DNA of 64,000 nucleotides from Bradyrhizobium sp. (lineage in GTDB: Bacteria > Pseudomonadota > Alphaproteobacteria > Rhizobiales > Beijerinckiaceae), in NCBI GenBank assembly GCA_004799435.1, contig SSMV01000169.1, positions 980-64,979 on the forward strand, written 5' to 3'. A model generated the notes under the pieces. The model had not been told where the DNA came from. It ran no database searches and saw only the letters and a program-made list of their open reading frames with translations. The position numbers were made by a program, and so were the translations under genes. Shown here piece after piece: positions 16,862 through 32,664 of this stretch. How positions within the stretch are numbered: the first letter of the stretch is position 1; each line of letters starts with the position of its first letter.

Positions 16862-18469
16862 CTAGAGGGCCGCGGGCGGCAAGGGCGGCTTGCCAAGGAT
16901 CATGTCGGCCGCCTTTTCAGCGACCATGATCGTCGGCGCATTGGTATTGCAGGACGGGACGAAGGGCATCACCGAGGCGTCGACGACGCGGATGCCCATG
17001 AGCCCACGCAGCTTGAGATCCGGCGTTACGACAGCCTCCGCGCCCGAGCCCATGGCGCAGGTTCCCGCCGGATGATGGTCGGTCTTGCAGGAGCGATAGG
17101 CGTATTGCGCCAGGTCCTCGTCGGTGTTGAGACCGTCGCCCGGCAGGCGCTCCGCCAGAACATAGGGCTTCAGCGCCGGCTGGCGCAGAATGTCGCGCGC
17201 CAGCCTAAGGCCCTTGATGGCGCATTGGCGATCGTAAGGGTCAGCCCAGTAATTGGGATCGATGAGCGGCGCCGCTTTCGGATCGTCGCTGGCGATCCGC
17301 ACCGTGCCACGCGAGCGGGGGCGCAAGAAGGCCGAGTTCAAAGTCACGCCGGGATTTTTCATCGCCGCGACCCCCGCCTCGATGCCGGAGCCGAGACCGA
17401 GGTGGAATTGAATGTCGGGCGAGCGCGCTTCTCTGTCGGCGTACCAGAAGCCGCCCGTCTCGAAGAGCGTCGAGGTCACCGGTCCGCTCTTGAACAAGAG
17501 ATATTCAAGACCTGCCCAGGCGGTGCGATGCGGGCGCGCGACGCGGTCATAGGTGTGATCGCCGGTGCATTCCGAGATCGCATAGAGATCGAGATGATCC
17601 TGCATATTCGAGCCGACGCCGGGCAGGTCGTGAACGACCGCGACTCCCGCGGCTTTCAGATCGTCGGCCGGACCGATGCCGGAAAGCTGCAGCAGGCGCG
17701 GCGAACCGATAGCGCCGCAACTGATGATGATTTCCCGGTCGGCGTTGAGGGTCGCCGTCCCCGTCCCGGAGGCGATCGTCACGCCCACCGCGCGGCCGTT
17801 GCTGACCTCGATCTTCATCGTTTGCGTATTGAGGCGAACGCTAAGATTTTTGCGACCGAGGATCGGCTTCAAAAAGGCGCTTGACGCTGATGAACGCTCG
17901 GCATTGCGCGTCGAGAGCTGATAATGGCCGATGCCGTCCTGCACGGCGCCGTTGAAATCGTCGTTGAAGGGAATTCCATATTCCTGCGCGGCGCGTAGGA
18001 AGGCGTAGCTGATTGGCGGCGGACTGACCGGATAGGAAACGCCGAGCGGACCGCCATAGCTATGGTAGGCGTTGTGCAGCTTCTGATTGTCCTCGCTGCG
18101 CTTGAAATAGGGGAGGACCTCGCGATAGCTCCAGCCCTGAGCGCCGGCGTCGCTCGCCCAGGAATCATAGTCCTTGGCGTTGCCGCGCGTATAGAGCTGC
18201 GCGTTGATCGTCGAGCCGCCGCCGATGATCTTGGCCTGCGTGTACCAGATGACGCGGCCGTCAAGATGCTTTTGCGGAACGGTGCTCCATCCCCAGCTCG
18301 CGACGCCCTTGGTCATTTTCGCGAAGCCGGCCGGCATACGAAAAAGCGGGTTCCAGTCGCCACCGCCCGCCTCGAGAAGCAGCACCTCGATCGAGGGATC
18401 GGCGCTCAGGCGGTTCGCCAGCACGCAGCCGGCGGGACCGCCGCCAACGACGATGTAATCGTAGCCCAT
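16862..18469 (-). CDS. GMC flavoprotein oxidoreductase, L-sorbose 1-dehydrogenase-like
   Basis: GGGPAG, MPAGFAKMT, GGGSTINA, PGVGSNMQDH, HPAGTCAMG and CNTNAPTIMVAEKAAD. Strongly resembles the Gluconobacter L-sorbose dehydrogenase as I remember it (MPVGFAKMT, GGAFWY, PDLQFH). Confidence 0.85.
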   Translation of the reverse strand: MGYDYIVVGGGPAGCVLANRLSADPSIEVLLLEAGGGDWNPLFRMPAGFAKMTKGVASWGWSTVPQKHLDGRVIWYTQAKIIGGGSTINAQLYTRGNAKDYDSWASDAGAQGWSYREVLPYFKRSEDNQKLHNAYHSYGGPLGVSYPVSPPPISYAFLRAAQEYGIPFNDDFNGAVQDGIGHYQLSTRNAERSSASSAFLKPILGRKNLSVRLNTQTMKIEVSNGRAVGVTIASGTGTATLNADREIIISCGAIGSPRLLQLSGIGPADDLKAAGVAVVHDLPGVGSNMQDHLDLYAISECTGDHTYDRVARPHRTAWAGLEYLLFKSGPVTSTLFETGGFWYADREARSPDIQFHLGLGSGIEAGVAAMKNPGVTLNSAFLRPRSRGTVRIASDDPKAAPLIDPNYWADPYDRQCAIKGLRLARDILRQPALKPYVLAERLPGDGLNTDEDLAQYAYRSCKTDHHPAGTCAMGSGAEAVVTPDLKLRGLMGIRVVDASVMPFVPSCNTNAPTIMVAEKAADMILGKPPLPPAAL

Positions 18470-18484
18470 CAGCCTACCTTCAGA

Positions 18485-19984
18485 TCAATGAAGCTCGGTC
18501 TTGACGATATGGTCCGCGACGCGCAGCGCCTGCGCCGCAATCGTCAGCGAGGGATTGACCGCCGCCGAGGTCGGCAGACACGAAGCGTCGACGACGAAGA
18601 GATTGGGGTGATCCCAGGCGCGGCAGTAAGGATCGAGCGGCGATGTCGCGGGATCCGCGCCGATACGAATGGTGCCGCATTGATGTGACGGCGTGCGGCG
18701 ATCGAAGGGCCGCGTCAGAACGATCGGATAGCCCGCCGCGCGCAGCCGCTCTTTGAAGGCGTCGACGAGTTTCAGATGCGTCCCCCAGTTGCTGCGCTTC
18801 CAGTCAAGATGGATTTGGCCGCCGTTCACGGTGACGCGGCTCTCCGGATTGGGAAGGTCCTCGCTCATCGCGTACCAGTCGACCGCGCGCCGCGACAGCG
18901 GCGAGAGAAGCCATTCCGGAAAACGCCGCAGGTTCGCTTTCAGGATCGGCGCGCTCACGCGGCCAAGCAACTGGATATTGCCGAGCGGCGCGCCGCCATG
19001 TCCATCATCGAAGTAGAAGTCGTTGACGCCGAGCGTCTTCTGATAGATCGAGTCATTGACGGCTCTGGGGTCGATCGCCAGCATCGCGGTCGTATTGTGA
19101 TTCATGAAATGCCGCCCGACCATGCCTGATCGATTGGCGATGCCGCCGTCGCGCGAGGAGAGCAGAAGGACGGCGGAATTGACCGCGCCGGCCGACAGGA
19201 TGACGGTCTTGGCCACTATGCGCTTGCGTTCGCCGTCGATCGTCGCTTCGACGCCGGATATTCGTTTTCCGTCGGCGTCCAGCAACAGGCGTTCGACCTT
19301 GGCGCGCTCGCGCAATTCGACATTGGGATAGCGAAACGCCTCGGCGAGCCCGCAGCTTTCGGCGTCCATCTTGCCGAAGCCGGTATCGGGAAATGCGTCC
19401 CAGGGCGTCTTCGCCCGCGCCAGCCAGCGATCGATGTCGACCCCTAGGGGCAGCGAGAATGGGTGCAGGCCGACGCGCGTCATGCGCTCGCGCACAAGCG
19501 CGATCGCCGGCTCGTCGGGAACGGGCGGAAAGGGATAGGGCGCGGAATGGTCCGGCTCAGTGGGATCGCCGCCGAGCGCGCCATGCGCGCGATAGAGTCT
19601 TTCCGCACGACCATACCAGGGTTCGAGCTCGCCATATTCGAAGGGCCAGCCCGGCGTCGCGCCGTCAGGATAGTCGACCGGCCGGAAGTCCCGCGCCCGG
19701 TAGCGCAGCAGGACCGCGCCATAGAGTTTGGTGTTTCCCCCGACGTAATAATAATTGCCGGGATTGAAAGTTACGCCGGCGCCGTCGATCCAGGATTCCT
19801 GCGGCCGGTACACGCCGCGCTGGAATATGGCGCGCGCGTCGCGCGCGTCGGGAGAATCCGGCAAGCGCGAGCCGCGCTCGAGGATGAGGATTTTCGCGCC
19901 GGAGGGCGCCAATCCGGCCGCGCAGGTCGCGCCGCCCATTCCCGATCCGACGATCAGAATGTCAACCGTCTCAGGATCTGTCAT
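18485..19984 (-). CDS. Second GMC-family flavoprotein oxidoreductase (different subfamily)
   Basis: GSGMGG, VGGNTKLYGA, GRHFMNH, SHQCGTIRIG and PTSAAVNPSLTIAAQALRVA. Confidence 0.88.
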   Translation of the reverse strand: MTDPETVDILIVGSGMGGATCAAGLAPSGAKILILERGSRLPDSPDARDARAIFQRGVYRPQESWIDGAGVTFNPGNYYYVGGNTKLYGAVLLRYRARDFRPVDYPDGATPGWPFEYGELEPWYGRAERLYRAHGALGGDPTEPDHSAPYPFPPVPDEPAIALVRERMTRVGLHPFSLPLGVDIDRWLARAKTPWDAFPDTGFGKMDAESCGLAEAFRYPNVELRERAKVERLLLDADGKRISGVEATIDGERKRIVAKTVILSAGAVNSAVLLLSSRDGGIANRSGMVGRHFMNHNTTAMLAIDPRAVNDSIYQKTLGVNDFYFDDGHGGAPLGNIQLLGRVSAPILKANLRRFPEWLLSPLSRRAVDWYAMSEDLPNPESRVTVNGGQIHLDWKRSNWGTHLKLVDAFKERLRAAGYPIVLTRPFDRRTPSHQCGTIRIGADPATSPLDPYCRAWDHPNLFVVDASCLPTSAAVNPSLTIAAQALRVADHIVKTELH

Positions 19985-20007: not shown

Positions 20008-21120
20008 CTAGACCCGGCGGCTGGTCTGCGGATCGAACAGAACCGCCTTGTCGAGATTGAATGCGAAGGAGACATTTTGTCCCGGCCGCACGTCGGCGTC
20101 GGCGCGCATCCGCGCGGTGACTTCCTTGCCGGCGATCTTCGTCACCACGAAAGTGTCCGAGCCGGCCGGCTCGACGAGATCGACATGCGAGGCGAAAGTC
20201 GCGATGTTTTTCGACTTGCGGTCGGCGCTTTCCGGGTCGCTCACCGCCTCCGGGCGAATGCCAAGAATGACGATACCGCCGTCGCGCAGCTTCGTCGCGT
20301 CGGCGCTGTTCGGCGCCGGCAGGACGATCGGTTCCGCGCCGGGGCGGTCGACCACGATCGAAGCGGCGCCGTTGGTCTTCGACACTTTCGCCTCGATGAG
20401 ATTCATCGAGGGCGAGCCCATGAAATCGGCGACGAAGAGATTGGCCGGCGTGTTGTAAATCTCGTAGGGGCTGCCGACCTGTTGCAATTCGCCGTCCTTC
20501 AGCACGGCGATGCGGGTCGCGAGGGTCATCGCCTCGATCTGGTCATGCGTGACATAGACGATCGTCGTTCCGGTCTGGTGATGAAGCCGTTTGATCTCGA
20601 TGCGCATGTCGACGCGCAATTTGGCGTCGAGGTTGGAGAGCGGTTCGTCGAACAGGAACACGCGCGGTTGGCGCACCAGAGCCCGGCCCATGGCGACGCG
20701 CTGGCGCTGGCCGCCTGACAGCTGGCTCGGCCGCCGATTGAGCAAATGCTCGATTTGCAGCGTCTTGGCGACATCGGCCACCGCCTTGTCGCGCTCCGGC
20801 TTCGGCACGCCGCGCATTTCCATGCCGAAGGCCATGTTCTGCGCGACCGACATGTTGGGATAGAGCGCGTAGGACTGGAACACCATCGCGATGTCGCGCT
20901 TCGAGGGATGGAGATCGTTGATTACGTCGCCGTCGATGCTGATCTCGCCGGAGGTGATCGATTCCAGTCCGGCGATCATGTTGAGCAGGGTCGATTTGCC
21001 ACAGCCCGACGGCCCGACGAGAACGAGGAAGCCGCCCTTCTCCAGGGTCAGATCGATGCCCTTGATAATCTCCAGCGCGCCGAAGCGCTTGCGCAGAGCG
21101 TTGATCTCAAGAAAGGCCAT
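20008..21120 (-). CDS. Sugar ABC transporter ATP-binding protein (MalK/MsmK family)
   Basis: GPSGCGKST, LSGGQRQRVAMGR, FDEPLSNLDAKLR and a C-terminal TOBE/OB region. Confidence 0.96.
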   Translation of the reverse strand: MAFLEINALRKRFGALEIIKGIDLTLEKGGFLVLVGPSGCGKSTLLNMIAGLESITSGEISIDGDVINDLHPSKRDIAMVFQSYALYPNMSVAQNMAFGMEMRGVPKPERDKAVADVAKTLQIEHLLNRRPSQLSGGQRQRVAMGRALVRQPRVFLFDEPLSNLDAKLRVDMRIEIKRLHHQTGTTIVYVTHDQIEAMTLATRIAVLKDGELQQVGSPYEIYNTPANLFVADFMGSPSMNLIEAKVSKTNGAASIVVDRPGAEPIVLPAPNSADATKLRDGGIVILGIRPEAVSDPESADRKSKNIATFASHVDLVEPAGSDTFVVTKIAGKEVTARMRADADVRPGQNVSFAFNLDKAVLFDPQTSRRV

Positions 21121-21123
21121 GAT

Positions 21124-22071
21124 CTATCCCTTCACCGCGCCGGCCATCAGACCGCGCACGAAATAACGGCCGCCGACGATATAGACGAACAGCGTCGGCC
21201 CCGCGGCGATGATCGCTGCGGCCATATTGACATTATATTCAACGATGCCCGTCGAGGTGTTGACGAGATTGTTCAAGGCGACCGTCATCGGCGAGGAGTC
21301 GCCCGCCGCAAAAGTCGAGCCGAACAGAAAGTCGTTCCAGATGTTGGTGAACTGATAGATCACCGTCACGATGATGATCGGCGTCGAATTCGGCAGAAGG
21401 ATGCGACGAAAGATCTGAAAAAAACTCGCGCCGTCGATCTGCGCCGCCTTCACCAATTCGGTCGGAAACGCCTCGTAATAGTTGCGGAAGAACAGGGTGG
21501 TGAAGCCGAGGCCATAAATGACGTGGACGATCACCAGATTGACGGTCGGATTGCCGAAGCCGAAAGCGTAGCCCGTCGCATCGATCAGCGAATTGCCGAT
21601 CTCGCCGAGATAGCCGAGGATCACCGCCATCGGAATGATGACCGACTGGAACGGGATGAAGCAAGCAAACAGCATCATGCCGAAGACCAGTTTATGGCCG
21701 GGGAAGCGCCATTTGGTCAGCACGTAGCCGTTCAACGCGCCGAGCATGGTCGAGATCGCCACCGCCGGCACGACCATTTTGATCGAATTCCAGAAATAGC
21801 CGGCGATGCCGGCCGTGTCCGAAACGCCGATGCGCGCCTCGCCCCAGGCCTGCACCCAGGGGTCGAAAGTCAGGTGATGCGGCAGGGCGAACATATTGCC
21901 GCCGGTCACTTCGTCGAGCGGCTTCAGCGATGTCATCACCATGACGACAAGCGGAATGAGATAGACGAAAGCAAAGAGGAGCAGCAGGCCGTAAATCACC
22001 ACGCGGGTGAGATTGGAGTGGCGCGCCGGCTCGCGGGCAGGCGGCGACGTGATGAGATCGGCGGCGCTCAT
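21124..22071 (-). CDS. Carbohydrate ABC transporter permease (MalG-type)
   Basis: EAA loop ELVKAAQIDGAS and IWNDFLFG. Its ATG overlaps the upstream stop (ATGA); the ORF track over-extends it. Confidence 0.93.
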   Translation of the reverse strand: MSAADLITSPPAREPARHSNLTRVVIYGLLLLFAFVYLIPLVVMVMTSLKPLDEVTGGNMFALPHHLTFDPWVQAWGEARIGVSDTAGIAGYFWNSIKMVVPAVAISTMLGALNGYVLTKWRFPGHKLVFGMMLFACFIPFQSVIIPMAVILGYLGEIGNSLIDATGYAFGFGNPTVNLVIVHVIYGLGFTTLFFRNYYEAFPTELVKAAQIDGASFFQIFRRILLPNSTPIIIVTVIYQFTNIWNDFLFGSTFAAGDSSPMTVALNNLVNTSTGIVEYNVNMAAAIIAAGPTLFVYIVGGRYFVRGLMAGAVKG

Positions 22072-23018
22072 CGACCCTTCTCCCGAAGCTCGGAATAGAG
22101 ATAGGGCACCATGATCGCGGCGATGGTCATCAACATGATGACCGCGGCGGTCGAGCCGACCGCCATCTGATTGCGGGTGAAGGTGAAGGAATACATGAAG
22201 GTCGACGGCAACTCCGCCGCGCCGCCGGGATTCTTGCCGGTGACCGAGAGCACCAGATCGTAGGATTTGATCGCCATATGGGTGAGAATGATGATGGCGG
22301 ACAGAAAGACCGGCCGCATGATTGGGATAATGATGCGCCGGTAGGTCTGAAAGGCCGACGCGCCGTCGATCTGCGCGGCTTTGATGATTTCGCCGTCGAC
22401 GCCGCGAAGCCCGGCGAGGAACATCGCCATGACGAAACCGGACGTCTGCCAGATTCCGGCGATGGCGACGCAATAGATCATCATGCGCGGATTGACGACC
22501 CAATCGAAATGAAAACTCGTCCAGCCCCAGTCGTGCATGGCTTTCTCGAGCCCGATGCCCGGATCGAGAAACAGTTTCCAGGCCGTGCCGGTCACGATGA
22601 AGGACAGCGCGAGCGGATAGAGATAGATCGGCCTCAAGATGCCTTCGCCGCGGATCTTCTGATCGAGCAGGATCGCCAGCGTCAGGCCCAGCACCAGACA
22701 GAAAAAGACATAGAGGCCGCCGAACAGGCCCATGTTGACGATCGCCGTGTACCAGTTCGACGGCGGGTCGGATTGAAAGGTCCAGTCCCACAGGCGCCGG
22801 TAGTTCAGCAAGCCGACGAGATGCGTGCTCGCGAAGGCCTTGGAATTGGTGAAAGAGAGAAAGAACGTCCACAGGTTGAAGCCGTAGACGAAGACGAGCA
22901 CCAGAATGAAAGACGGCGCCAGGACGAGCTTCGGCAAAAGATTTTGCAGGCGCTGTCGCGCCAGTCCGCGACGAGCGCGAGTCGTTTTGACCACGGTCGG
23001 CGCCACACTTACGGTCAT
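22068..23018 (-). CDS. Carbohydrate ABC transporter permease (MalF-type)
   Basis: EAA loop EIIKAAQIDGAS and IWQTSGFVMAMFLAGL. Confidence 0.93.
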   Translation of the reverse strand: MTVSVAPTVVKTTRARRGLARQRLQNLLPKLVLAPSFILVLVFVYGFNLWTFFLSFTNSKAFASTHLVGLLNYRRLWDWTFQSDPPSNWYTAIVNMGLFGGLYVFFCLVLGLTLAILLDQKIRGEGILRPIYLYPLALSFIVTGTAWKLFLDPGIGLEKAMHDWGWTSFHFDWVVNPRMMIYCVAIAGIWQTSGFVMAMFLAGLRGVDGEIIKAAQIDGASAFQTYRRIIIPIMRPVFLSAIIILTHMAIKSYDLVLSVTGKNPGGAAELPSTFMYSFTFTRNQMAVGSTAAVIMLMTIAAIMVPYLYSELREKGR

Positions 23019-23053
23019 CGAACGGACCCGGCCTTATCTGAAACGGGGACGAA

Positions 23054-23080
23054 CCCTCCCTCGCGCAAGGCGAGGGAGGG
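23054..23080 (-). other. 11-bp GC stem-loop immediately downstream of the substrate-binding protein gene (mRNA stabiliser or partial terminator)
   Basis: ccctccctcgc-gcaag-gcgagggaggg is a perfect stem; the U-tract on the minus strand is weak. Confidence 0.65.
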
Positions 23081-23091
23081 CTTTTATCAGA

Positions 23092-24357
23092 TTATTTGGC
23101 GTTATTGAGCGCCTTGTCCAGCTCCGCAACGGCGGCGTCGGACGTCTTGATCTCGCCGTGGAAGAACTTCGTCACCACGTCGTGATAGGCGCCAGCGACC
23201 GCCGGCGGCTGCGCGTAGTTCTGCGCCATGGAGCCGACGAAGGTTCCGGCCGCGTTGGCGGCCTTGACGTCGGCGATGCCCTTCTTGCCGCACATGTCGA
23301 AGGCGGTGTCGGGAACATCCATACGCGCCGGCACCGAACCCTTGACGACGTTGAACGCCGACTGGAAGCTCGGGCTCATCGTCGCGTCGGCGAGCGCGAG
23401 CTGCGCGCCCTGGCGGTCGGCCGAGACCTTGAACATCGCGAACATGTCGGTGTTGTAGATCACGGAGCCGTCGGTGCCGGGGAAGCGATAGCAAAGGAAG
23501 TCTTTGCCCGCTTCCTTGTTGGCGGCGCGGAACTCGCCCTTCGCCCAGTCGCCCATCACCTGAACGAGCGCGTCGCCCTTGATCACCATGGCGGTCGCGA
23601 GGTTCCAATCGCGGCCGGCGTAGTTCGGGTCGACGTAATCGCGCAGCTTGGCGAGATTGTCGAAGGACTTCTTCATCGTGTCGGACTTCAGAGCGCCTTC
23701 GTCCAGGTCGACGAACGCCTTCTTGTAGAATTCGATGCCGCCGGTGGAGGCCACGACCGAATCGAAGAGGGTCGCTTCCTGCCACGGCTGGCCGCCGAGC
23801 GCGAGCGGGATGACCCCCGCCGCCTTCGCCTTGCCAAGCAGCGCAACGAAATCGTCGAAGTTCTTCGGCTCGGTTCCGCCGATCTTGTCCATCACGGACT
23901 TATTGATCCACACCCAGTTGACCGAATGGATGTTGACCGGAACCGCGTCCCACTTGCCGTCCGTTGTGGTGAACTTCTGCAGGGCCTGCGGAACGACCTT
24001 CGCCCAATCCTCCTTCTTGGCTAGCGACGAGATGTCGCCGAGCTTGCCGGCTTCCGCGTAGTCGACCGCGAAATAACCGAGGATCTGCGAGGCGGTGGGC
24101 GGATTGCCCGCCGCGACCATCGCCTTCAGGGCGGTCATCGCGCCTTCGCCGCCACCGCCGGCGATCGGCACGTCCTTCCAGGCGTAGCCTTCTTTGGCGA
24201 GATCCTGCTTGAGGACGTTCAGCGCGGCTGCTTCGCCGCCCGAAGTCCACCAATGCAGCATCTGGATTTCTTTGTCCTCAGCGGCAATGGCGCCTGAGGT
24301 CAGGCCGAGCGCTCCCGCGGTCATCACGCTCGCCATCAAAATCGAACGAAGTTTCAT
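23092..24357 (-). CDS. Sugar ABC transporter substrate-binding protein (glucose/mannose GtsA-like family)
   Basis: Signal peptide, QMLHWWTSGGEAAAL, VPVNIHSVNW, LALGGQPWQ, DWNLATAM and MGDWAKGEF. Confidence 0.92.
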   Translation of the reverse strand: MKLRSILMASVMTAGALGLTSGAIAAEDKEIQMLHWWTSGGEAAALNVLKQDLAKEGYAWKDVPIAGGGGEGAMTALKAMVAAGNPPTASQILGYFAVDYAEAGKLGDISSLAKKEDWAKVVPQALQKFTTTDGKWDAVPVNIHSVNWVWINKSVMDKIGGTEPKNFDDFVALLGKAKAAGVIPLALGGQPWQEATLFDSVVASTGGIEFYKKAFVDLDEGALKSDTMKKSFDNLAKLRDYVDPNYAGRDWNLATAMVIKGDALVQVMGDWAKGEFRAANKEAGKDFLCYRFPGTDGSVIYNTDMFAMFKVSADRQGAQLALADATMSPSFQSAFNVVKGSVPARMDVPDTAFDMCGKKGIADVKAANAAGTFVGSMAQNYAQPPAVAGAYHDVVTKFFHGEIKTSDAAVAELDKALNNAK

Positions 24358-24445: not shown

Positions 24446-25975
24446 TCAGGCTCCGCGTGGGAGCCACCAACTCGTTCTCGGACCGGTGTGGACGTGAAAC
24501 GTCTTTTCCTCGGTGTAGTCTTTCACCGCGTTGCGCCCCAATTCGCGGCCGACGCCCGACTGGCGATAGCCGCCGAACGGCAGTTCCGGCGTTCCGTCCA
24601 TGAATGTGTTCACCCAGATCGTGCCGGCGCGCACGCCGCGACCGACGCCGATGGCCGTGTCGACGTCGCGGCTCCAGACGCTGGCGGACAGGCCGTAGTC
24701 GGTGGCGTTGGCGAGCGCGATCGCTTCCTCGCGCGTATCGAAACTCAGCGTGACGACAACCGGGCCGAAGACTTCAGCGCGTGCGATCGCCATCGCCGCA
24801 GTCACCTTGTCGACGATTGTCGGCGCCATGAAAAACCCGCTCGACTCCAGCCTGCCGCCGCCCGCCCGAACCTGCGCGCCGTCGCGTTCGGCGGCAGTTA
24901 CGTGATCCTCGATCTTCCCGAGATGATCCGAAGTGATGATCGCGCCGACGCGCGTATCCGCATCGAGTGGGTCCCCGACCTTCACGCTCCTGGCGCGCGC
25001 CGCCAGACCTTCGATGAACTCATCGGCGATGCTCGAATGAAGAAGCAAGCGGGAGCCGGCATTGCAGCATTCGCCCGCGTTGAAATAGGCGCCGAACGTG
25101 GCGGCGTCGAGCGCCGCATCCATATCCGCGTCGGGAAAGATCAATTGCGGGTTCTTGCCGCCAAGCTCCATCGAGACTTTTTTCAATGTCGCGGCGCCCG
25201 CCGCGACGGCCGCGCGACCCACCCGCGTCGAACCGGTGAAGGAGATCATGTCGACCTCCGGATCGGCGGTGAGCGGCGCGCCGACCTCCGGCCCGTATCC
25301 CGTCACGACGTTGCAGACGCCTTCCGGCAGGCCGGCCTCGGCCAACAGGTTCATCAGATGCAGCGTCGAGGCTGACGTCATCTCGCTCGGCTTCACGACG
25401 CATGTGCAGCCTGCGGCGAGCGCGAAAGGCAGCTTTTGCGACACGATCAGAAACGGGAAATTCCACGGCGTGATGATCGAGACGACGCCGATCGGTTCCC
25501 TCAGCACCACGCCCAACCGGTCGGCGCCGAGATTTGCGTAGCTTTCGCCCGAAAGCTCTCTCGCCAATGAAGCGGCGTAACGCCAGATGTCCGCGGCGCC
25601 TTCGATTTCGCCGCGCGCCTGAGCGAGCGGCTTTCCCGACTCCAAAGTGTCGAGAATTGCGATCAGTTCACGATCGCGGTCGATCAGATCGGCCGTCTTC
25701 AGGAGAAGACGCGCGCGGTTGGACGCCGTCTCGCGCGGCCACGGTCCATTGTCAAAGGCGAGGCGCGCAGCGGCGATGGCGGCGCGCGCATCCTCCGCGC
25801 GACCGCGCGGGATGCGCGTCACGACGACCCCATGCGCCGGGCTCGATCGCTCGATCATCTCGCCGTCGCCGCCAACCGCGCGACCCGCGATGCTCATCGC
25901 GCGATCGCGCGGAAAGCGCGCGAGCGCGTCGTTCAGCTTCTTCGTGTCAACGGCGATGCGTGCGGGGGCGTTCAT
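24446..25975 (-). CDS. NAD(P)-dependent aldehyde dehydrogenase, L-sorbosone dehydrogenase (SNDH)-like
   Basis: ITPWNFP, FTGST, MELGGKN, catalytic GECCNAGSR and GGYRQSGVGRE. ERSSPAH..VTRIPR and the C-terminal GPRTSWW recall Gluconobacter SNDH. Confidence 0.9.
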   Translation of the reverse strand: MNAPARIAVDTKKLNDALARFPRDRAMSIAGRAVGGDGEMIERSSPAHGVVVTRIPRGRAEDARAAIAAARLAFDNGPWPRETASNRARLLLKTADLIDRDRELIAILDTLESGKPLAQARGEIEGAADIWRYAASLARELSGESYANLGADRLGVVLREPIGVVSIITPWNFPFLIVSQKLPFALAAGCTCVVKPSEMTSASTLHLMNLLAEAGLPEGVCNVVTGYGPEVGAPLTADPEVDMISFTGSTRVGRAAVAAGAATLKKVSMELGGKNPQLIFPDADMDAALDAATFGAYFNAGECCNAGSRLLLHSSIADEFIEGLAARARSVKVGDPLDADTRVGAIITSDHLGKIEDHVTAAERDGAQVRAGGGRLESSGFFMAPTIVDKVTAAMAIARAEVFGPVVVTLSFDTREEAIALANATDYGLSASVWSRDVDTAIGVGRGVRAGTIWVNTFMDGTPELPFGGYRQSGVGRELGRNAVKDYTEEKTFHVHTGPRTSWWLPRGA

Positions 25976-25986
25976 GGTCCTCGGTC

Positions 25987-26760
25987 CTATCGGCCGCTGA
26001 AAACTGGCGCGCGCTTGGCGCGGAAAGCCGCTCGGCCTTCAGCCAGATCTTCGGTGTAAGCCGTAAGCGCGCCTGCGAGCCCCTCGATCGGAGCATCCCG
26101 ATCCTCCCCTTCGGCCGCATTGATCATCGACTTGATCATTTGAACTGCGAGCGGCCCACGCTTGGCTATATCTGCAGCAAGAACGTGCGCGCGAGAAGCC
26201 CCTTTGCCTTTTGCCACGACTTCATCGACGAGTCCGAGCGTTAGAGCTTCCTCCGCCGTGAAGACTGCGCCGGCCAGCGCCATTCGTCTTACAATAGAGG
26301 CGCCGAAGCGACGCACGAGTCTCTGCGTGCCCGACCAGCCCGGCGCCATGCCCAATCCCGATTCAGGAAGACCGAGTTTGACGCCGCTCTCGGCGATGCG
26401 AATGTCGCCAACAGCGGCAAGTTCCAGGCCTCCGCCCAAGGCGTGACCTGCCAGCACGACGATCAACGGCACGCGAAGACGCGCCAGGGCTTCCAGAGCG
26501 CGGTGTCCGGCGCGCGTCCAGTCGCGCCACATTTCCAAAGGCGGCAGATCGCCCCAAGCCGCGATGTCGCCGCCCGCGCAAAAGGCCTTGCCCTCGCCCG
26601 ACAGGATCGCCACTCGCATGTCAGTGGACGCGTCGATCGCCCGCGCGCTTTCCAAAAGAGCGTCGATCATCGATCGGTCGAGCGCGTTCAGCTTGTCCGG
26701 TCGCTTCAGCGTCAGGAACGCGCAAGGGCCTTCGAAACGCAATTCGACAAAGGCATTCAT
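25987..26760 (-). CDS. Enoyl-CoA hydratase/isomerase (crotonase) family protein
   Basis: RPDKLNAL, AFCAGGDI, GHALGGGLEL, LGLPESGLG and WSGTQRLVR; both catalytic-type Glu positions are present. Confidence 0.92.
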   Translation of the reverse strand: MNAFVELRFEGPCAFLTLKRPDKLNALDRSMIDALLESARAIDASTDMRVAILSGEGKAFCAGGDIAAWGDLPPLEMWRDWTRAGHRALEALARLRVPLIVVLAGHALGGGLELAAVGDIRIAESGVKLGLPESGLGMAPGWSGTQRLVRRFGASIVRRMALAGAVFTAEEALTLGLVDEVVAKGKGASRAHVLAADIAKRGPLAVQMIKSMINAAEGEDRDAPIEGLAGALTAYTEDLAEGRAAFRAKRAPVFSGR

Positions 26761-28358
26761 TGCAGCGTCTCCCGCGCCGGCCGTAGCTGCAGATTGAACG
26801 GCTCAGGGTTGAACAGCGCCGCGTCCATCGTCCGGACGTGCTGGGCCACGCGAAGCGGAAATTCCGCCTGCGCGAGAATGTCGCGCTCGAGATCGACGCC
26901 AAGCGCGATCTCTATGACCGTCACGCCGTCGCGCTCCAGGCGCATAACGCAACGTTCGGTGACATAGACAATGTCCTGTCCCTGCGCGACGGCGCGCGGA
27001 CCGGAGAAGGAAATCTGCTCGACCGCTTCGACGAGCTTTTTGACTTTACCTTCCTTGACGATCGAAACCGCGCCATCGCGCACGTCGAGCTTCGCCCCGG
27101 CCGTGAAATAGCCGGAGAAGACGATCTTTTTTGCCCGCGCGGTGATGTCGACAAAACCGCCGGCGCCGGCGGTCACATGCGGACGCACGCCGAGCTTGGA
27201 CACATTGACGGAGCCGCCCTTGTCGATCTGCAGGAAGGAGAGCAACGACATATCGAAGCCGGCGCCCTGGAAGTAAGTAAATTGGTGGGGCGACTGGACA
27301 ATCGCCTCGGCGTTGGAAGCGCAACCGAACTGGAAATCGAGCAGCGGCACGCCGCCGACGGCGCCCTGTTCGATGACCCAGGTCACCGCGCCGTGGCGGC
27401 CTTCCTCAATCAGGATGCGCGGCACATTTGCAGATATGCCGAAGCCGATATTGACGGCGTCGCCGTCGCGCAGCTCCTGGGCGACGCGTCTGGCGATCAC
27501 TTTGGCAATGTCGAACTTCGGGATTTCGAACGACGACAGCGGCCGAAAGATCTCGCCGGAGATCGCCGGCTCATAGACGGTGTTGGTCGTCTGCAACTGA
27601 TCGGGCGCGACGACGATATAGTCGACCAGAACGCCCGGCACGACGACGTCATGGGGACGGATCGTGTCGGCGGCGGCGAGACGCTTAACCTGCGCAATGA
27701 CGATCCCGCCATTGTTGCGAACCGAGAGCGCCTGATCGAGCGGCCCCAGCACGCCGCCTTCATGTTCGTAGGAGAGATTGCCGCGTTCGTCGGCCGTCGT
27801 GGCGCGAATGATCGCGATATGCGGAGTGATCGTCGGAAAGAAGAGCCATTCATCGTCAGCGAAATTGACGCGCTTGACGATCGGATCGACGGCGGCCTTA
27901 GCGTTCATCGCGCAGCCCTCATGGAGCGGATCGACAAAGGTCTCCATGCCGACTTTCGTCAACACGCCCGGCCGCTTGGCGGCGGCTTCGCGATGAATGT
28001 CGAAGAGAATGCCAGAGGGGACGTTGTAGGCCGGGATCGCGTCGTCGCAGATCATCTTCCAGATCGCCGGCGGCTCGGCCGAGGACGGCCCGGACGGATA
28101 AGAGCCCGCCAGCACTCGCGCCAGGCATCCGGATTTCGCGATATGATCGACGCCCTTGACGCCCCACATGTCGCCCGCCGCGATCGGGTGCAATGTCGTG
28201 AGATCGCGCGGGTGACCGTCGGCGTCGAATCTTTCTCCGATCGCTTTAAGAACCGCGTCCGGGCAGCCAAGCGCCGAAGAGGACGAGACCGTTACGATCG
28301 CGCCATCAGGAATGAGACAAGCAGCGGCGGCGGCGGAAATGACTTTTTTCTTCGCCAT
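26757..28358 (-). CDS. Acyl-CoA:acetate/3-ketoacid CoA transferase (family I, fused alpha/beta, YdiF/Pct-like)
   Basis: AIIRATTADERGN, NGGIVIAQV, NIGFGIS, catalytic IEQGAVGG and GAGGFVDIT. Confidence 0.92.
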   Translation of the reverse strand: MAKKKVISAAAAACLIPDGAIVTVSSSSALGCPDAVLKAIGERFDADGHPRDLTTLHPIAAGDMWGVKGVDHIAKSGCLARVLAGSYPSGPSSAEPPAIWKMICDDAIPAYNVPSGILFDIHREAAAKRPGVLTKVGMETFVDPLHEGCAMNAKAAVDPIVKRVNFADDEWLFFPTITPHIAIIRATTADERGNLSYEHEGGVLGPLDQALSVRNNGGIVIAQVKRLAAADTIRPHDVVVPGVLVDYIVVAPDQLQTTNTVYEPAISGEIFRPLSSFEIPKFDIAKVIARRVAQELRDGDAVNIGFGISANVPRILIEEGRHGAVTWVIEQGAVGGVPLLDFQFGCASNAEAIVQSPHQFTYFQGAGFDMSLLSFLQIDKGGSVNVSKLGVRPHVTAGAGGFVDITARAKKIVFSGYFTAGAKLDVRDGAVSIVKEGKVKKLVEAVEQISFSGPRAVAQGQDIVYVTERCVMRLERDGVTVIEIALGVDLERDILAQAEFPLRVAQHVRTMDAALFNPEPFNLQLRPARETLQ

Positions 28359-30403
<2,045 letters not shown>

Positions 30404-30588: not shown

Positions 30589-32664
30589 TTGGCCCCGCCC
30601 GTCCCGCAATCCATCCTCGACGGATTGACCGACGTGACCATGCCTCGGCTGGCCAATGAAAGGCCGCCGGGGGATCTCGCGAGGGTCGGGCCCTATATCT
30701 TGCCCATCCAGCGCAGCGAAGCGCTTGTGCTTGGCAGCGGCGCGGCTGGCTTACGCGCCGCCGTCGAGTTGAAACGTCGCGATGTCGACGTTGTGGTCGC
30801 AAGCCAGAGCGCCTTCGGCGGAACTTCAGCCTGTTCAGGCTCCGATAAACAAACGCTGCACACCGCCAACAGCGCCGGACGCGGCGACGATTTCCAGGCG
30901 CTCGCCGATGCGCTGGGCGCCGGCGGCGCGATGGACGAGGACACCGCCTATGTCGAAGCGGTAGGTTCGGCGCGGGCGCTCGCCTCGCTTCAATTCATGG
31001 GCCTGCCGATTCCTCAGGATCGGCTGGGCGGCGTGTTGCGTTATCAAACCGACCATGACGAGATCGGCCGCGCGACAAGCTGCGGGCCTCGCACCTCGCG
31101 TCTCATGGTGCAGGCGCTGGCGCGCGAGGCGATCCGTCTTGAGATTCCGATCTTCAATCACACGACGGGCGTTCGCATTCTTGTTGCGGACGACGCGAGC
31201 CCGCGCGCAGTCGGCGTGATTGCCGCCGCGCCGGAAAAGAGAACGGCGGAAAATCCCTACGGTCTCACGGTCTTCCTTTCCGACGCCATTGTCCTTGCCG
31301 CCGGCGGCCCCGGCGAGCTCTATCGCGACAGCGTCTATCCGAAACATTGTTTCGGATCGCTCGGCCTCGCATTGGAGGCCGGCGTCGAGGCGGTCAATCT
31401 GACCGAAAGCCAATTCGGCATCGGCACGCCGCGCTATAATTTTCCGTGGAATCTGTCGGGCACTTACGTGCAATGCATGCCTTATATTTTTTCGCGCGAC
31501 GCGCGGGGCGTCGAACATAATTTTCTAACTGAGTACTACCGCACGACGCAGGAGCTCGCGTCCAACATCTTCCGCAAGGGCTATCAATGGCCGTTCCATG
31601 CCACGCGCATGCTCGACTTCCGATCGAGCCTGCTCGACCTCGCCGTCTATCGCGAGACCCGACTGCAGCGAAAAGTGTTCATGGATTTCAACCGCAACCC
31701 GCTGCCCGCGCCCGGCGACAGGCCGTTCAGCCTCGATCGTCTGGAGGACGACGTGCGCGCCTATCTAGAGAAGAGCGGTGCCCTGCTTGAGGCGCCGATC
31801 GATCGTCTGCGGAAAATGAACCCGCTCGCGATCGAGCTCTACAAGCGCTACAAATATGACATCACGCGCGATCCGCTCGAATTTGCGATCAACAATCAGC
31901 ATATGAATGGCGGCCTCGCCGTCGACGCCTGGGGCCGAACGACTCTCGCCGGCTGCTACGCCATCGGGGAGGCGGCGGGAACTCATGGCGTGACGCGGCC
32001 CGGCGGCGCCGCGCTGACCGCCGGTCAGGTCTTCGGTACGCGATGCGCCGAGCATATCGCCTCGATGCGCAAGCCTCACAAGACAGTCAATTCTGAGTCG
32101 CGCGCGATCGAAGCGGCCGTCGCGAGAATCATCGACGCCCTCAAAAGCGAGAACGGGTTGAGCGCGAAGTCGATCCGCGACGAAATCCAGGCGCGCATGA
32201 GCGATCACGCCGGAATTCTTTGCAAGCGCGATGACGTCAATCGCGCCAAGACGGCGGCGGCCGCCTTGAACCAATCGATTCGACAGCAAGGCGTCGCCTT
32301 CGCCGGCGCCAATGAGGCGCTGCGGGCGCTGCAGTGGCGGCAATCCGCTCTGGCGTCGGAAGCCATTCTCACGGCGCTGGCGTTCTATCTCGATCGCGGC
32401 GGCGGCAGCCGCGGCGCGCGCGCCGTTTGCTCGTCGAGCGGCGATCAGGTTCCCCAGGGCAGAAGCGGCCCCATCGAACAGGCCCGCTTCGTTTCGGAAC
32501 GGCCGCAGGATCGCGCCGAACAGATTCACATCCGATTGCGCGACGAAGCGTTCGTCTGCGAGCCACGGCCCATTCGCAAACGAAACCGCAACGACTCGCC
32601 GTTTTTCGAACGCGACTGGCCGGACTATCTGACGGGCGCGATCCATGATCCGCCTCCCGGATGA
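30589..32664 (+). CDS. Stand-alone FAD-binding protein of the SdhA/FrdA/NadB fold, function unknown
   Basis: LGSGAAGLRAA, VLAAGGPG, QHMNGG, GEAAGTHGVTRPGGAAL and the C-terminal GGSRGA. No Fe-S or membrane subunits are nearby. Start codon is uncertain. Confidence 0.82.
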   Translation: MAPPVPQSILDGLTDVTMPRLANERPPGDLARVGPYILPIQRSEALVLGSGAAGLRAAVELKRRDVDVVVASQSAFGGTSACSGSDKQTLHTANSAGRGDDFQALADALGAGGAMDEDTAYVEAVGSARALASLQFMGLPIPQDRLGGVLRYQTDHDEIGRATSCGPRTSRLMVQALAREAIRLEIPIFNHTTGVRILVADDASPRAVGVIAAAPEKRTAENPYGLTVFLSDAIVLAAGGPGELYRDSVYPKHCFGSLGLALEAGVEAVNLTESQFGIGTPRYNFPWNLSGTYVQCMPYIFSRDARGVEHNFLTEYYRTTQELASNIFRKGYQWPFHATRMLDFRSSLLDLAVYRETRLQRKVFMDFNRNPLPAPGDRPFSLDRLEDDVRAYLEKSGALLEAPIDRLRKMNPLAIELYKRYKYDITRDPLEFAINNQHMNGGLAVDAWGRTTLAGCYAIGEAAGTHGVTRPGGAALTAGQVFGTRCAEHIASMRKPHKTVNSESRAIEAAVARIIDALKSENGLSAKSIRDEIQARMSDHAGILCKRDDVNRAKTAAAALNQSIRQQGVAFAGANEALRALQWRQSALASEAILTALAFYLDRGGGSRGARAVCSSSGDQVPQGRSGPIEQARFVSERPQDRAEQIHIRLRDEAFVCEPRPIRKRNRNDSPFFERDWPDYLTGAIHDPPPG

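Follow-up and report, generated by a model that had tools for sequence, protein, structure and literature searches.

Placement of a stand-alone GMC flavoenzyme encoded with anhydrofructose reductase and its possible role as an oxygen-tolerant entry enzyme for 1,5-anhydroglucitol

A 64,000-nucleotide stretch of Bradyrhizobium sp. DNA (GenBank assembly GCA_004799435.1, contig SSMV01000169.1, positions 980 to 64,979 of the forward strand; hereafter the window, by which we mean the stretch at its full length) encodes two flavoenzymes of the GMC fold side by side, in an operon that also carries afr, the gene for anhydrofructose reductase (Afr). Which reaction would the upstream member of this pair, here called GMC2, catalyze, and with which of the other operon products does it belong? 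The two genes are as follows.

18485..19984, minus strand: GMC2, an ATG-started open reading frame of 499 codons for a predicted 499-residue cytoplasmic GMC-fold dehydrogenase or oxidase dependent on flavin adenine dinucleotide (FAD)
16862..18469, minus strand: GMC1, a choline-dehydrogenase-type GMC flavoprotein of 535 residues and the downstream neighbor of GMC2

We find that GMC2 is a Cys-less branch of the catalytic-subunit family of FAD-dependent glucose dehydrogenase (FAD-GDH) and fructose dehydrogenase (FDH), and not an enzyme of the choline-dehydrogenase type. We favor the reading that it is a soluble, cytoplasmic, FAD-dependent dehydrogenase or oxidase of sugar secondary alcohols. More specifically, with a probability of roughly 0.45, GMC2 would oxidize 1,5-anhydro-D-glucitol (1,5-AG) at C2 and form, together with Afr, the entry step of a gluco-to-manno epimerization, a role that we infer from its genomic coupling to afr. 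What the present analysis adds is the assignment of GMC2 to its family, the finding that its Fe-S site and partner subunits have been lost, and evidence for a tie to Afr rather than to the coenzyme A (CoA) module of the operon.

GMC2 passes both Pfam gathering scores of the fold (GMC_oxred_C with 63.1 bits and GMC_oxred_N with 43.5 bits), each model being covered partly, and three of its motifs can be placed on the sequence.

19931..19948, minus strand: GSGMGG, residues 13-18, the FAD-binding GxGxxG motif, in which G13, G15, G17 and G18 are invariant or nearly so in the family alignment
18671..18685, minus strand: HQCGT, with His434, the predicted catalytic base; this motif aligns with the alpha subunit of Burkholderia cepacia FAD-GDH (BcGDH)
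18542..18559, minus strand: VNPSLT, with Asn477, which completes the His/Asn catalytic pair of GMC enzymes; like His434 it aligns with its counterpart in BcGDH, and it is nearly invariant in the family alignment

We take His434 to act as the base from general knowledge of GMC enzymes. The best sequence match of GMC2 in the PDB is BcGDH alpha (6a2u, E 1.2e-34), which aligns through its residues 4-540 with residues 2-499 of GMC2, and the large subunit of Gluconobacter FDH (7w2j) matches with E 5e-20. In the same search, the similarity of pyranose oxidases, C-glycoside oxidases, choline oxidase and cholesterol oxidase to GMC2 is limited to the last ~80 residues. When an AF2 model built from 52 diverse homologs (predicted local distance difference test, 95.6; predicted template modeling score, 0.95) was compared with known structures in Foldseek, GMC structures were matched with probability 1.00; FDH and BcGDH ranked first, with template modeling (TM) scores of 0.80-0.83, and the glycoside and C-glycoside 3-oxidases and the pyranose oxidases came next, at 0.65-0.69. 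BcGDH alpha (PDB 6a2u, 8grj) shares with GMC2 full-length homology (TM 0.80), the fold, the FAD motifs and the His/Asn pair at ~24% identity, GMC2 being about 40 residues shorter, and the FDH large subunit of Gluconobacter japonicus (PDB 7w2j, 8jej) is the top structural match (TM 0.81-0.83) at 20-22% identity. These best solved relatives all oxidize sugar hydroxyls, FDH acting on a ring secondary alcohol. By comparison, GMC2 falls far short of the BetA-type models NF002550 (54.6 bits; cut-off, 605) and TIGR01810 (48 bits; cut-off, 732), and it is not a full-length pyranose 2-oxidase, as TIGR02462 reaches 48 bits (cut-off 545) over residues 434-495 only.

The fold neighbors that come after FDH and GDH, namely, the C-glycoside and glycoside 3-oxidases (TM 0.65-0.67), speak for an alternative in which GMC2 oxidizes the C3 or C4 hydroxyl of an anhydro-alditol or glycoside, and the keto-sugar is then eliminated or reduced, for example by a short-chain dehydrogenase/reductase (SDR) such as that of Sinorhizobium meliloti. 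Like GMC2, these oxidases (PsG3Ox 7qf8, CarA 7dve and DaCGO1 8qve) are stand-alone bacterial GMC enzymes, of about 495-530 residues, and they oxidize ring hydroxyls of pyranosides, acting at glycoside C3. However, they form a separate clade, and a full-length relationship was not found: 8qve, 7dve and 7qf8 cover only residues ~413-494 of GMC2, so that the sequence similarity (E about 1e-11) is confined to the C-terminal ~80 residues. The original prediction had named a 3-keto-forming glycoside oxidase as its own alternative; this option is weakened by the position of GMC2 outside the glycoside-3-oxidase clade and by its closer fit to FDH and GDH. We consider oxidation at C3 or C4 unlikely, although it is the subject of further evidence below.

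The N-terminus of GMC2 is directly the Rossmann strand, with neither a signal nor a Tat peptide. Since GSGMGG is already reached at residue 13, there is no room for a signal peptide, which confirms what had been read from the sequence before. An ortholog in S. meliloti has been labeled a "putative dehydrogenase transmembrane protein", and we rejected a transmembrane assignment for GMC2: its most hydrophobic 19 residues, from 256, form a strand and helix buried in the confident globular model, so the label is not supported. GmcA of Rhizobium leguminosarum, a classical GMC protein of 550 residues (PMC7105596), was likewise rejected as a relative.

GMC1, in turn, is a full-length choline-dehydrogenase-like GMC enzyme (GMC_oxred_N 172 bits, NF002550 556 bits, TIGR01810 465). 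The alignment between the two neighbors is weak, being restricted to 282 N-terminal residues with 22% identity (E 2e-6 in a single comparison). Given this weak alignment, the original prediction was correct in assigning the pair to different subfamilies. Its statement that GMC2 lacks SDH-like motifs has to be turned around: of the two enzymes, it is GMC2 that resembles the catalytic subunits of membrane-bound sugar dehydrogenases (FAD-GDH and FDH), and what it is missing is their Cys-rich Fe-S stretch.

19349..19408, minus strand: GMC2 residues 193-212, TPWDAFPDTGFGKMDAESCG, the site of the BcGDH 3Fe-4S cysteines, with one Cys left

At this site, the alignments place TPWDAFPDTGFGKMDAESCG of GMC2 against CxxCxxCDGFPC in relatives and CCGNNNCMPIC in BcGDH; GMC2 has five Cys in total. 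A homolog search against 1.84 billion representatives yielded 707 clusters at E 1e-30 or better. Most of the best full-length homologs aligned have C-x-x-C-x-x-C-D-G-[FY]-P-C where the cluster cysteines of BcGDH lie, and GMC2 and its close relatives have TPWDAFPDTG. In a quick maximum-likelihood IQ-TREE run, 19 rows, among them GMC2, SMc04392 of S. meliloti and all other operon members, grouped together in a single clade (SH-aLRT support, 99%). The cysteines of the Fe-S site are missing from every one of these rows, and this Cys-less clade was nested among Cys-containing proteins. Separately, many stand-alone relatives of ~500 residues keep the Cys motif (in the columns of GMC2 residues 186-204), with no signal peptide among those looked at; the motif suggests that these relatives hold an Fe-S cluster.

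In catalytic subunits of the BcGDH type, the 3Fe-4S cluster accepts electrons from the FAD, export is accomplished by a disulfide-bonded Tat hitch-hiker small subunit, and the electrons are delivered in the periplasm to a three-heme cytochrome c (PMC9727119). FDH is, similarly, a membrane-bound heterotrimer that depends on Fe-S and cytochrome. In contrast to both, GMC2 is predicted to be cytoplasmic and has lost the cysteines, and partner subunits are missing as well. The ABC ATPase gene upstream is separated from GMC2 by a 23-nt spacer, and the spacer to GMC1 is exactly 15 nt (tctgaaggtaggctg), as had been stated for the tandem pair, and includes an AGG-rich, ribosome-binding-like stretch; no small-subunit or cytochrome gene beside GMC2 fits these spacers, and no promoter-like or terminator-like site was found on the minus strand between the ATPase, GMC2 and GMC1 genes. 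Moreover, all genes of the operon could be assigned to families, and the hitch-hiker small-subunit family PF13618 had no match in the window's genome, which is 98.9% complete. The earlier remark that no cytochrome or small subunit adjoins GMC2 thus holds. Since both the cysteines and the partner subunits are missing, GMC2 is homologous to the catalytic subunits but stands outside complexes of that kind, to which those of the FAD-GDH, FDH and 2-ketogluconate dehydrogenase type belong. In our reading, it descends from the catalytic subunit of bacterial flavoprotein-cytochrome c sugar dehydrogenases and has shed the 3Fe-4S cluster, the Tat hitch-hiker subunit and the cytochrome.

If GMC2 stands outside such complexes, which of its neighbors does it belong with? 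The operon comprises ten minus-strand genes, in the order lacI, afr, CoA transferase, hydratase, aldehyde dehydrogenase (ALDH), binding protein, permease, ATPase, GMC2 and GMC1. GMC2 is thus gene nine of ten and lies directly upstream of GMC1; the genes preceding it are listed here from the head of the operon.

29366-30403, minus strand: lacI, for a LacI-family repressor, at the head of the operon, a position conserved among relatives
28359 to about 29360, minus strand: afr, for anhydrofructose reductase, with matches to PDB 2glx and 4koa
26757-28358, minus strand: CoA transferase
25987-26760, minus strand: enoyl-CoA hydratase
24446-25975, minus strand: ALDH, which together with the CoA transferase and the hydratase makes up the downstream module of the operon (24446..28358)
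20008..24357, minus strand: a CUT1-type sugar ABC transporter, composed of the next three genes
23092-24357, minus strand: sugar-binding protein of the ABC transporter (S. meliloti ortholog, SMc04396)
21124-22872, minus strand: fused ABC permease of 582 codons
20008-21120, minus strand: ABC ATPase

The Afr of the window aligns without gaps over 328 residues with the crystallized 2glx (about two-thirds identical, E 1e-137; for 4koa, 9e-134) and can be assigned, by this match, as the ortholog of the crystallized C2-specific NADPH ketoreductase. If GMC2 supplies the substrate of Afr, both genes are expected to be co-inherited and to be separable from the CoA module. We took a sample of 401 genomes, drawn evenly from the window's order, searched it with GMC2, the CoA transferase, Afr and GMC1 and compared the coordinates. 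Among loci with a CoA-transferase ortholog, afr lies within 16 kb in 33/36 that have GMC2 and in 0/23 that do not; 33 of the 45 GMC2-clade loci (at least 54% identity) have afr, CoA transferase and GMC1, and 37 of 43 afr matches are at most 16 kb from GMC2, all of these being counts from related genomes, which do not represent independent events and carry no statistical test.

The second expectation, separability, is borne out by at least four unrelated contexts that keep afr with GMC2 and have no CoA module at the locus. On Bradyrhizobium plasmids, e.g., pNK6a, afr (71%) directly adjoins GMC2 (73%), accompanied by a divergent MFS permease and flanking transposases; CoA transferase, hydratase and GMC1 are absent from these plasmid loci, as they are from the locus in genome G323, where an adjacent afr-GMC2 pair has a LacI gene and a gene resembling GH2 beta-mannosidases for neighbors. 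In genome G136, a Cys-containing GMC2 relative (46%) shares its operon with an afr-like gene (51%), genes for a sulfatase and an AGE-family (GlcNAc 2-epimerase-type) protein, and an ABC transporter. The most telling case is genome G343, in which an operon of afr, binding protein, permease, ATPase and GMC2 lies ~880 kb from the CoA transferase, hydratase, ALDH, GMC1, lacI and an SdhA-like gene. The operon is divided here: transporter, GMC2 and Afr make up an entry module, and GMC1 stays with ALDH, CoA transferase and hydratase in a downstream one. Altogether, the pattern is clear and speaks for a tie of GMC2 to Afr rather than to the CoA module. It also speaks against oxidation at C3 or C4 that the partner co-varying with GMC2 is a ketoreductase specific for C2, that the neighbors of the minimal modules (the GH2 beta-mannosidase-like and AGE 2-epimerase-family genes) point to C2/manno chemistry, and that the operon has no eliminase of the sugar-phosphate isomerase/epimerase type.

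We also examined the neighborhoods of the best 80 loci among the 448 GMC2 relatives in the genome collection. These loci encode full-length orthologs with 63-81% identity and belong to Roseiarcus and other Hyphomicrobiales metagenome-assembled genomes, Bradyrhizobium, Methylocapsa, Microvirga, Kaistia, Alsobacter, Dongiaceae and Geminicoccaceae. GMC1 is directly downstream of GMC2 in 69 of the 72 loci with enough flank. Upstream, where 60 loci have enough flank, afr is found in 56, the CoA transferase in 57, the hydratase in 58, the binding protein in 57 and ALDH in 19, and loci without ALDH have no other gene in its place.

The constancy of the pair, against an ALDH that is present in only 19/60 loci, leads to a further alternative, in which GMC2 acts with GMC1 on C6: GMC1 would make the aldehyde, and GMC2 would oxidize the aldehyde hydrate or an internal hemiacetal to an acid or lactone. 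Such a step from C6 aldehyde to acid would explain why ALDH is dispensable. It would also suit the adjacency of the two genes, which persists even after inversion of the gene order (L069 and L073), the Rhizobium etli-type operons, which keep a GMC2-like/GMC1-like pair without afr, and the chemistry of BcGDH, the closest solved relative, which oxidizes a hemiacetal carbon. However, the distributions of GMC2 and ALDH are not complementary, GMC2 being present both with and without ALDH, and we rejected it as an ALDH substitute. Furthermore, GMC2 of G343 stays with afr and the transporter while parted from GMC1, ALDH and CoA transferase, afr-GMC2 modules without GMC1 occur, and paralogous CoA-transferase operons do without any GMC2. 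Joint action on C6 therefore strikes us as distinctly improbable.

The operon of the window is the same as that of the 1,5-anhydro-D-fructose (1,5-AF) pathway of Sinorhizobium morelense and S. meliloti, of which only the reductase has been characterized and in which the GMC enzymes were given no role. In S. meliloti, the experimentally defined afr (SMc04400) is surrounded by lacI, CoA transferase, hydratase, ALDH, ABC transporter, GMC2 ortholog, SDR, GMC1 and glycerate kinase genes. The GMC2 ortholog is SMc04392 (63% identical), and GMC1 there is SMc04390. A proteomics table lists SMc04390 as "L-sorbose dehydrogenase", SMc04391 as an SDR and SMc04392 under the transmembrane label discussed above, all of which were detected and changed together; the listing confirms the locus tags. 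The binding-protein gene, SMc04396, is dextrin-induced (PMC4960864). The only other match for SMc04390-SMc04401 was a paper on a regulatory network, and no functional study of these genes was found in the papers searched. The SDR gene (SMc04391, L081:13491-14264) lies between GMC2 and GMC1, the glycerate kinase gene (L081:16236-17507) follows GMC1, and gaps of SDR-gene size separate GMC2 from GMC1 in L058, L064 and L072. A reductase encoded between the two flavoenzymes, with the equal-sized gaps elsewhere, is a point for oxidation at C3 or C4.

How would GMC2 act in the C2 reading, which we favor? The ABC transporter would import a gluco-configured, ring-locked polyol, most likely 1,5-AG. GMC2, with His434 as the base, would move the C2 hydride to FAD and produce 1,5-AF, which the NADPH-dependent Afr would reduce stereospecifically to 1,5-anhydro-D-mannitol (1,5-AM). 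The net gluco-to-manno epimerization would funnel both 1,5-AG and 1,5-AF into one manno-configured intermediate, to be processed by GMC1, ALDH, CoA transferase and hydratase. According to stereochemical reasoning on paper, the manno configuration would give 2-keto-3-deoxy-D-gluconate through C6 oxidation, CoA activation, 4,5-dehydration and ring opening. The substrate, the C2 regiochemistry and the electron acceptor of GMC2 (O2, a quinone or another) are all inferred. A GMC precedent for the proposed reaction is provided by fungal pyranose 2-oxidase (PDB 1tt0, 2igk), which oxidizes 1,5-AG at C2 (PMC8135088). This enzyme is on a distant branch (TM 0.66-0.69, 14-16% identity, with sequence similarity at the C-terminus only) and, unlike GMC2, is homotetrameric, extracellular or periplasmic, H2O2-forming and equipped with covalent FAD. 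According to a 2025 review, an aerobic 1,5-AG pathway has yet to be described (PMC12441222), and we judge it somewhat short of an even chance that GMC2 and Afr constitute the first oxygen-tolerant entry route for this compound.

In the published scheme, 1,5-AM is converted into mannose by a hydroxylase, and the same review states that this C-1 hydroxylating enzyme has still not been identified (PMC12441222). GMC2 itself might fill this position, drawing a hydride from the ether carbon C1 of 1,5-AM, with water then adding, so that afr and GMC2 would make up the full route from 1,5-AF to mannose. The self-contained afr-GMC2 modules that have only a transporter, one of them beside a beta-mannosidase-like gene, would fit such a route, as would the activity of the closest solved relative at pyranose C1. 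On the other hand, the carbon from which a GMC enzyme takes the hydride must normally bear a hydroxyl, and the always-linked CoA module would be left without a role. We know of no GMC precedent for the oxidation of an ether carbon, which, if it occurred here, would be chemistry new to GMC enzymes. In addition, the review calls the activity cytochrome P450-like (PMC12441222). We regard this route as very improbable. The probability that remains after these alternatives falls to substrates other than anhydro-sugars.

Several points weigh against the proposed oxidation of 1,5-AG at C2, beyond the relatedness of the genomes behind the co-occurrence counts. In the papers searched, we found no biochemical or genetic result for any member of the Cys-less clade, including SMc04392, and the regiochemistry is not readable from family membership, as relatives oxidize C1 (GDH) or other positions. 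Bacterial glucoside 3-dehydrogenases of the FAD-GDH family accept 1,5-AG and oxidize it at C3, which we count in favor of the C3/C4 alternative. The link of GMC2 to GMC1 in the best 80 loci is at least as constant as that to afr, and it outlasts the inversions. There are also a few GMC2 operons with no afr nearby (G233, G288, L044 and L058), and a sister subclade (52-57% identity), known for example from R. etli pC, Thalassospira and Priestia, is found in operons that have a thiamine diphosphate (ThDP) enzyme, a HisD-like dehydrogenase and, often, an aspartase-like gene and lack afr. Finally, S. morelense, the strain of the published pathway, was isolated on 1,5-AF as the sole carbon source (PMC12441222), a substrate on which the GMC2 step would not be needed. 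The original prediction that GMC2 serves with Afr as an entry or epimerization step is supported by the co-inheritance of the two genes, the CoA-free modules and the split in G343, but the GMC1 adjacency and the afr-less sister subclade show that coupling to Afr is not the whole story.

As for significance, 1,5-AG is a major human polyol, and its 6-phosphate causes the neutropenia of glycogen storage disease type Ib and of G6PC3 deficiency. To our knowledge, the known bacterial routes of 1,5-AG breakdown involve only oxygen-sensitive glycyl radical enzymes. A probiotic approach to 1,5-AG would, according to the review, need an enzyme that works in air (PMC12441222). If GMC2 is a 1,5-AG 2-dehydrogenase, it would fill the first step of an aerobic 1,5-AG pathway, explain why Afr makes the manno epimer and, being small, soluble and made of one subunit, could serve in 1,5-AG sensing in place of fungal pyranose oxidase. 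GMC2 also provides an example from evolution in which a dehydrogenase subunit that worked in the periplasm with Fe-S and cytochrome was reduced to a flavoenzyme acting alone in the cytoplasm. Should the assignment be wrong, the analysis still defines a large uncharacterized clade, including SMc04392, that is tied to the unfinished anhydrofructose pathway of 2006.

Some further observations concern relatives of the operon and of GMC2. A GMC2-like subclade (46-54% identical) is represented by L083:1485-12140, L099:3398-12467 and L100:914-9485, on R. etli pC, Thalassospira and Priestia megaterium plasmids, where it is accompanied by a ThDP-binding protein similar to acetolactate synthase, one similar to histidinol dehydrogenase, a transporter for sugars of the ABC or MFS type and an aspartate-ammonia-lyase-like gene. 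On a Gemmobacter fulvus plasmid (L101:7989-10361), the gene immediately after that of a GMC2 relative (47%) is shikimate-dehydrogenase-like; a flavoprotein is again paired with an NAD(P) reductase here, as would fit a cyclic polyol. Other Hyphomicrobiales have a paralogous "type II" operon without afr and GMC2 (L095:6183-15970; also L096 and L098) whose architecture is as in the window, with the order GMC1-like (49%), CoA transferase (68%), hydratase (55%), binding protein, permease, ATPase and GMC1-like (63%) in L095; these three loci come from the 23 CoA-transferase loci without GMC2. Its substrate is probably a related one for which no epimerization is required.

Within the window's taxonomic family, the closest afr relatives (72% identical; genomes G048 and G212, at L089:8149-9159 and L090) stand alone among unrelated genes such as those for an ArsR regulator and malic enzyme, and no GMC2 or CoA-transferase ortholog was found in these two genomes. 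Given this solitary afr, the operon of the window's genome may have been acquired laterally. In the window, the two permease components are encoded by a single fused gene with a 219-bp gap ahead of it, and the closest 80 loci show the same fusion; in S. meliloti and Rhizobium each component has a gene of its own. The window also contains, divergent from lacI, a gene for an SdhA-like protein at 30589-32664. A homologous SdhA-like FAD protein is encoded in Rhizobium sp. CCGE531 (L085:14301-19660), where the operon extends beyond GMC1 to a Gfo/Idh/MocA gene, the gene of this FAD protein and those of a sugar kinase and a fructose-bisphosphate aldolase. A kinase and an aldolase together would be in keeping with a keto-deoxy-sugar-acid end product.

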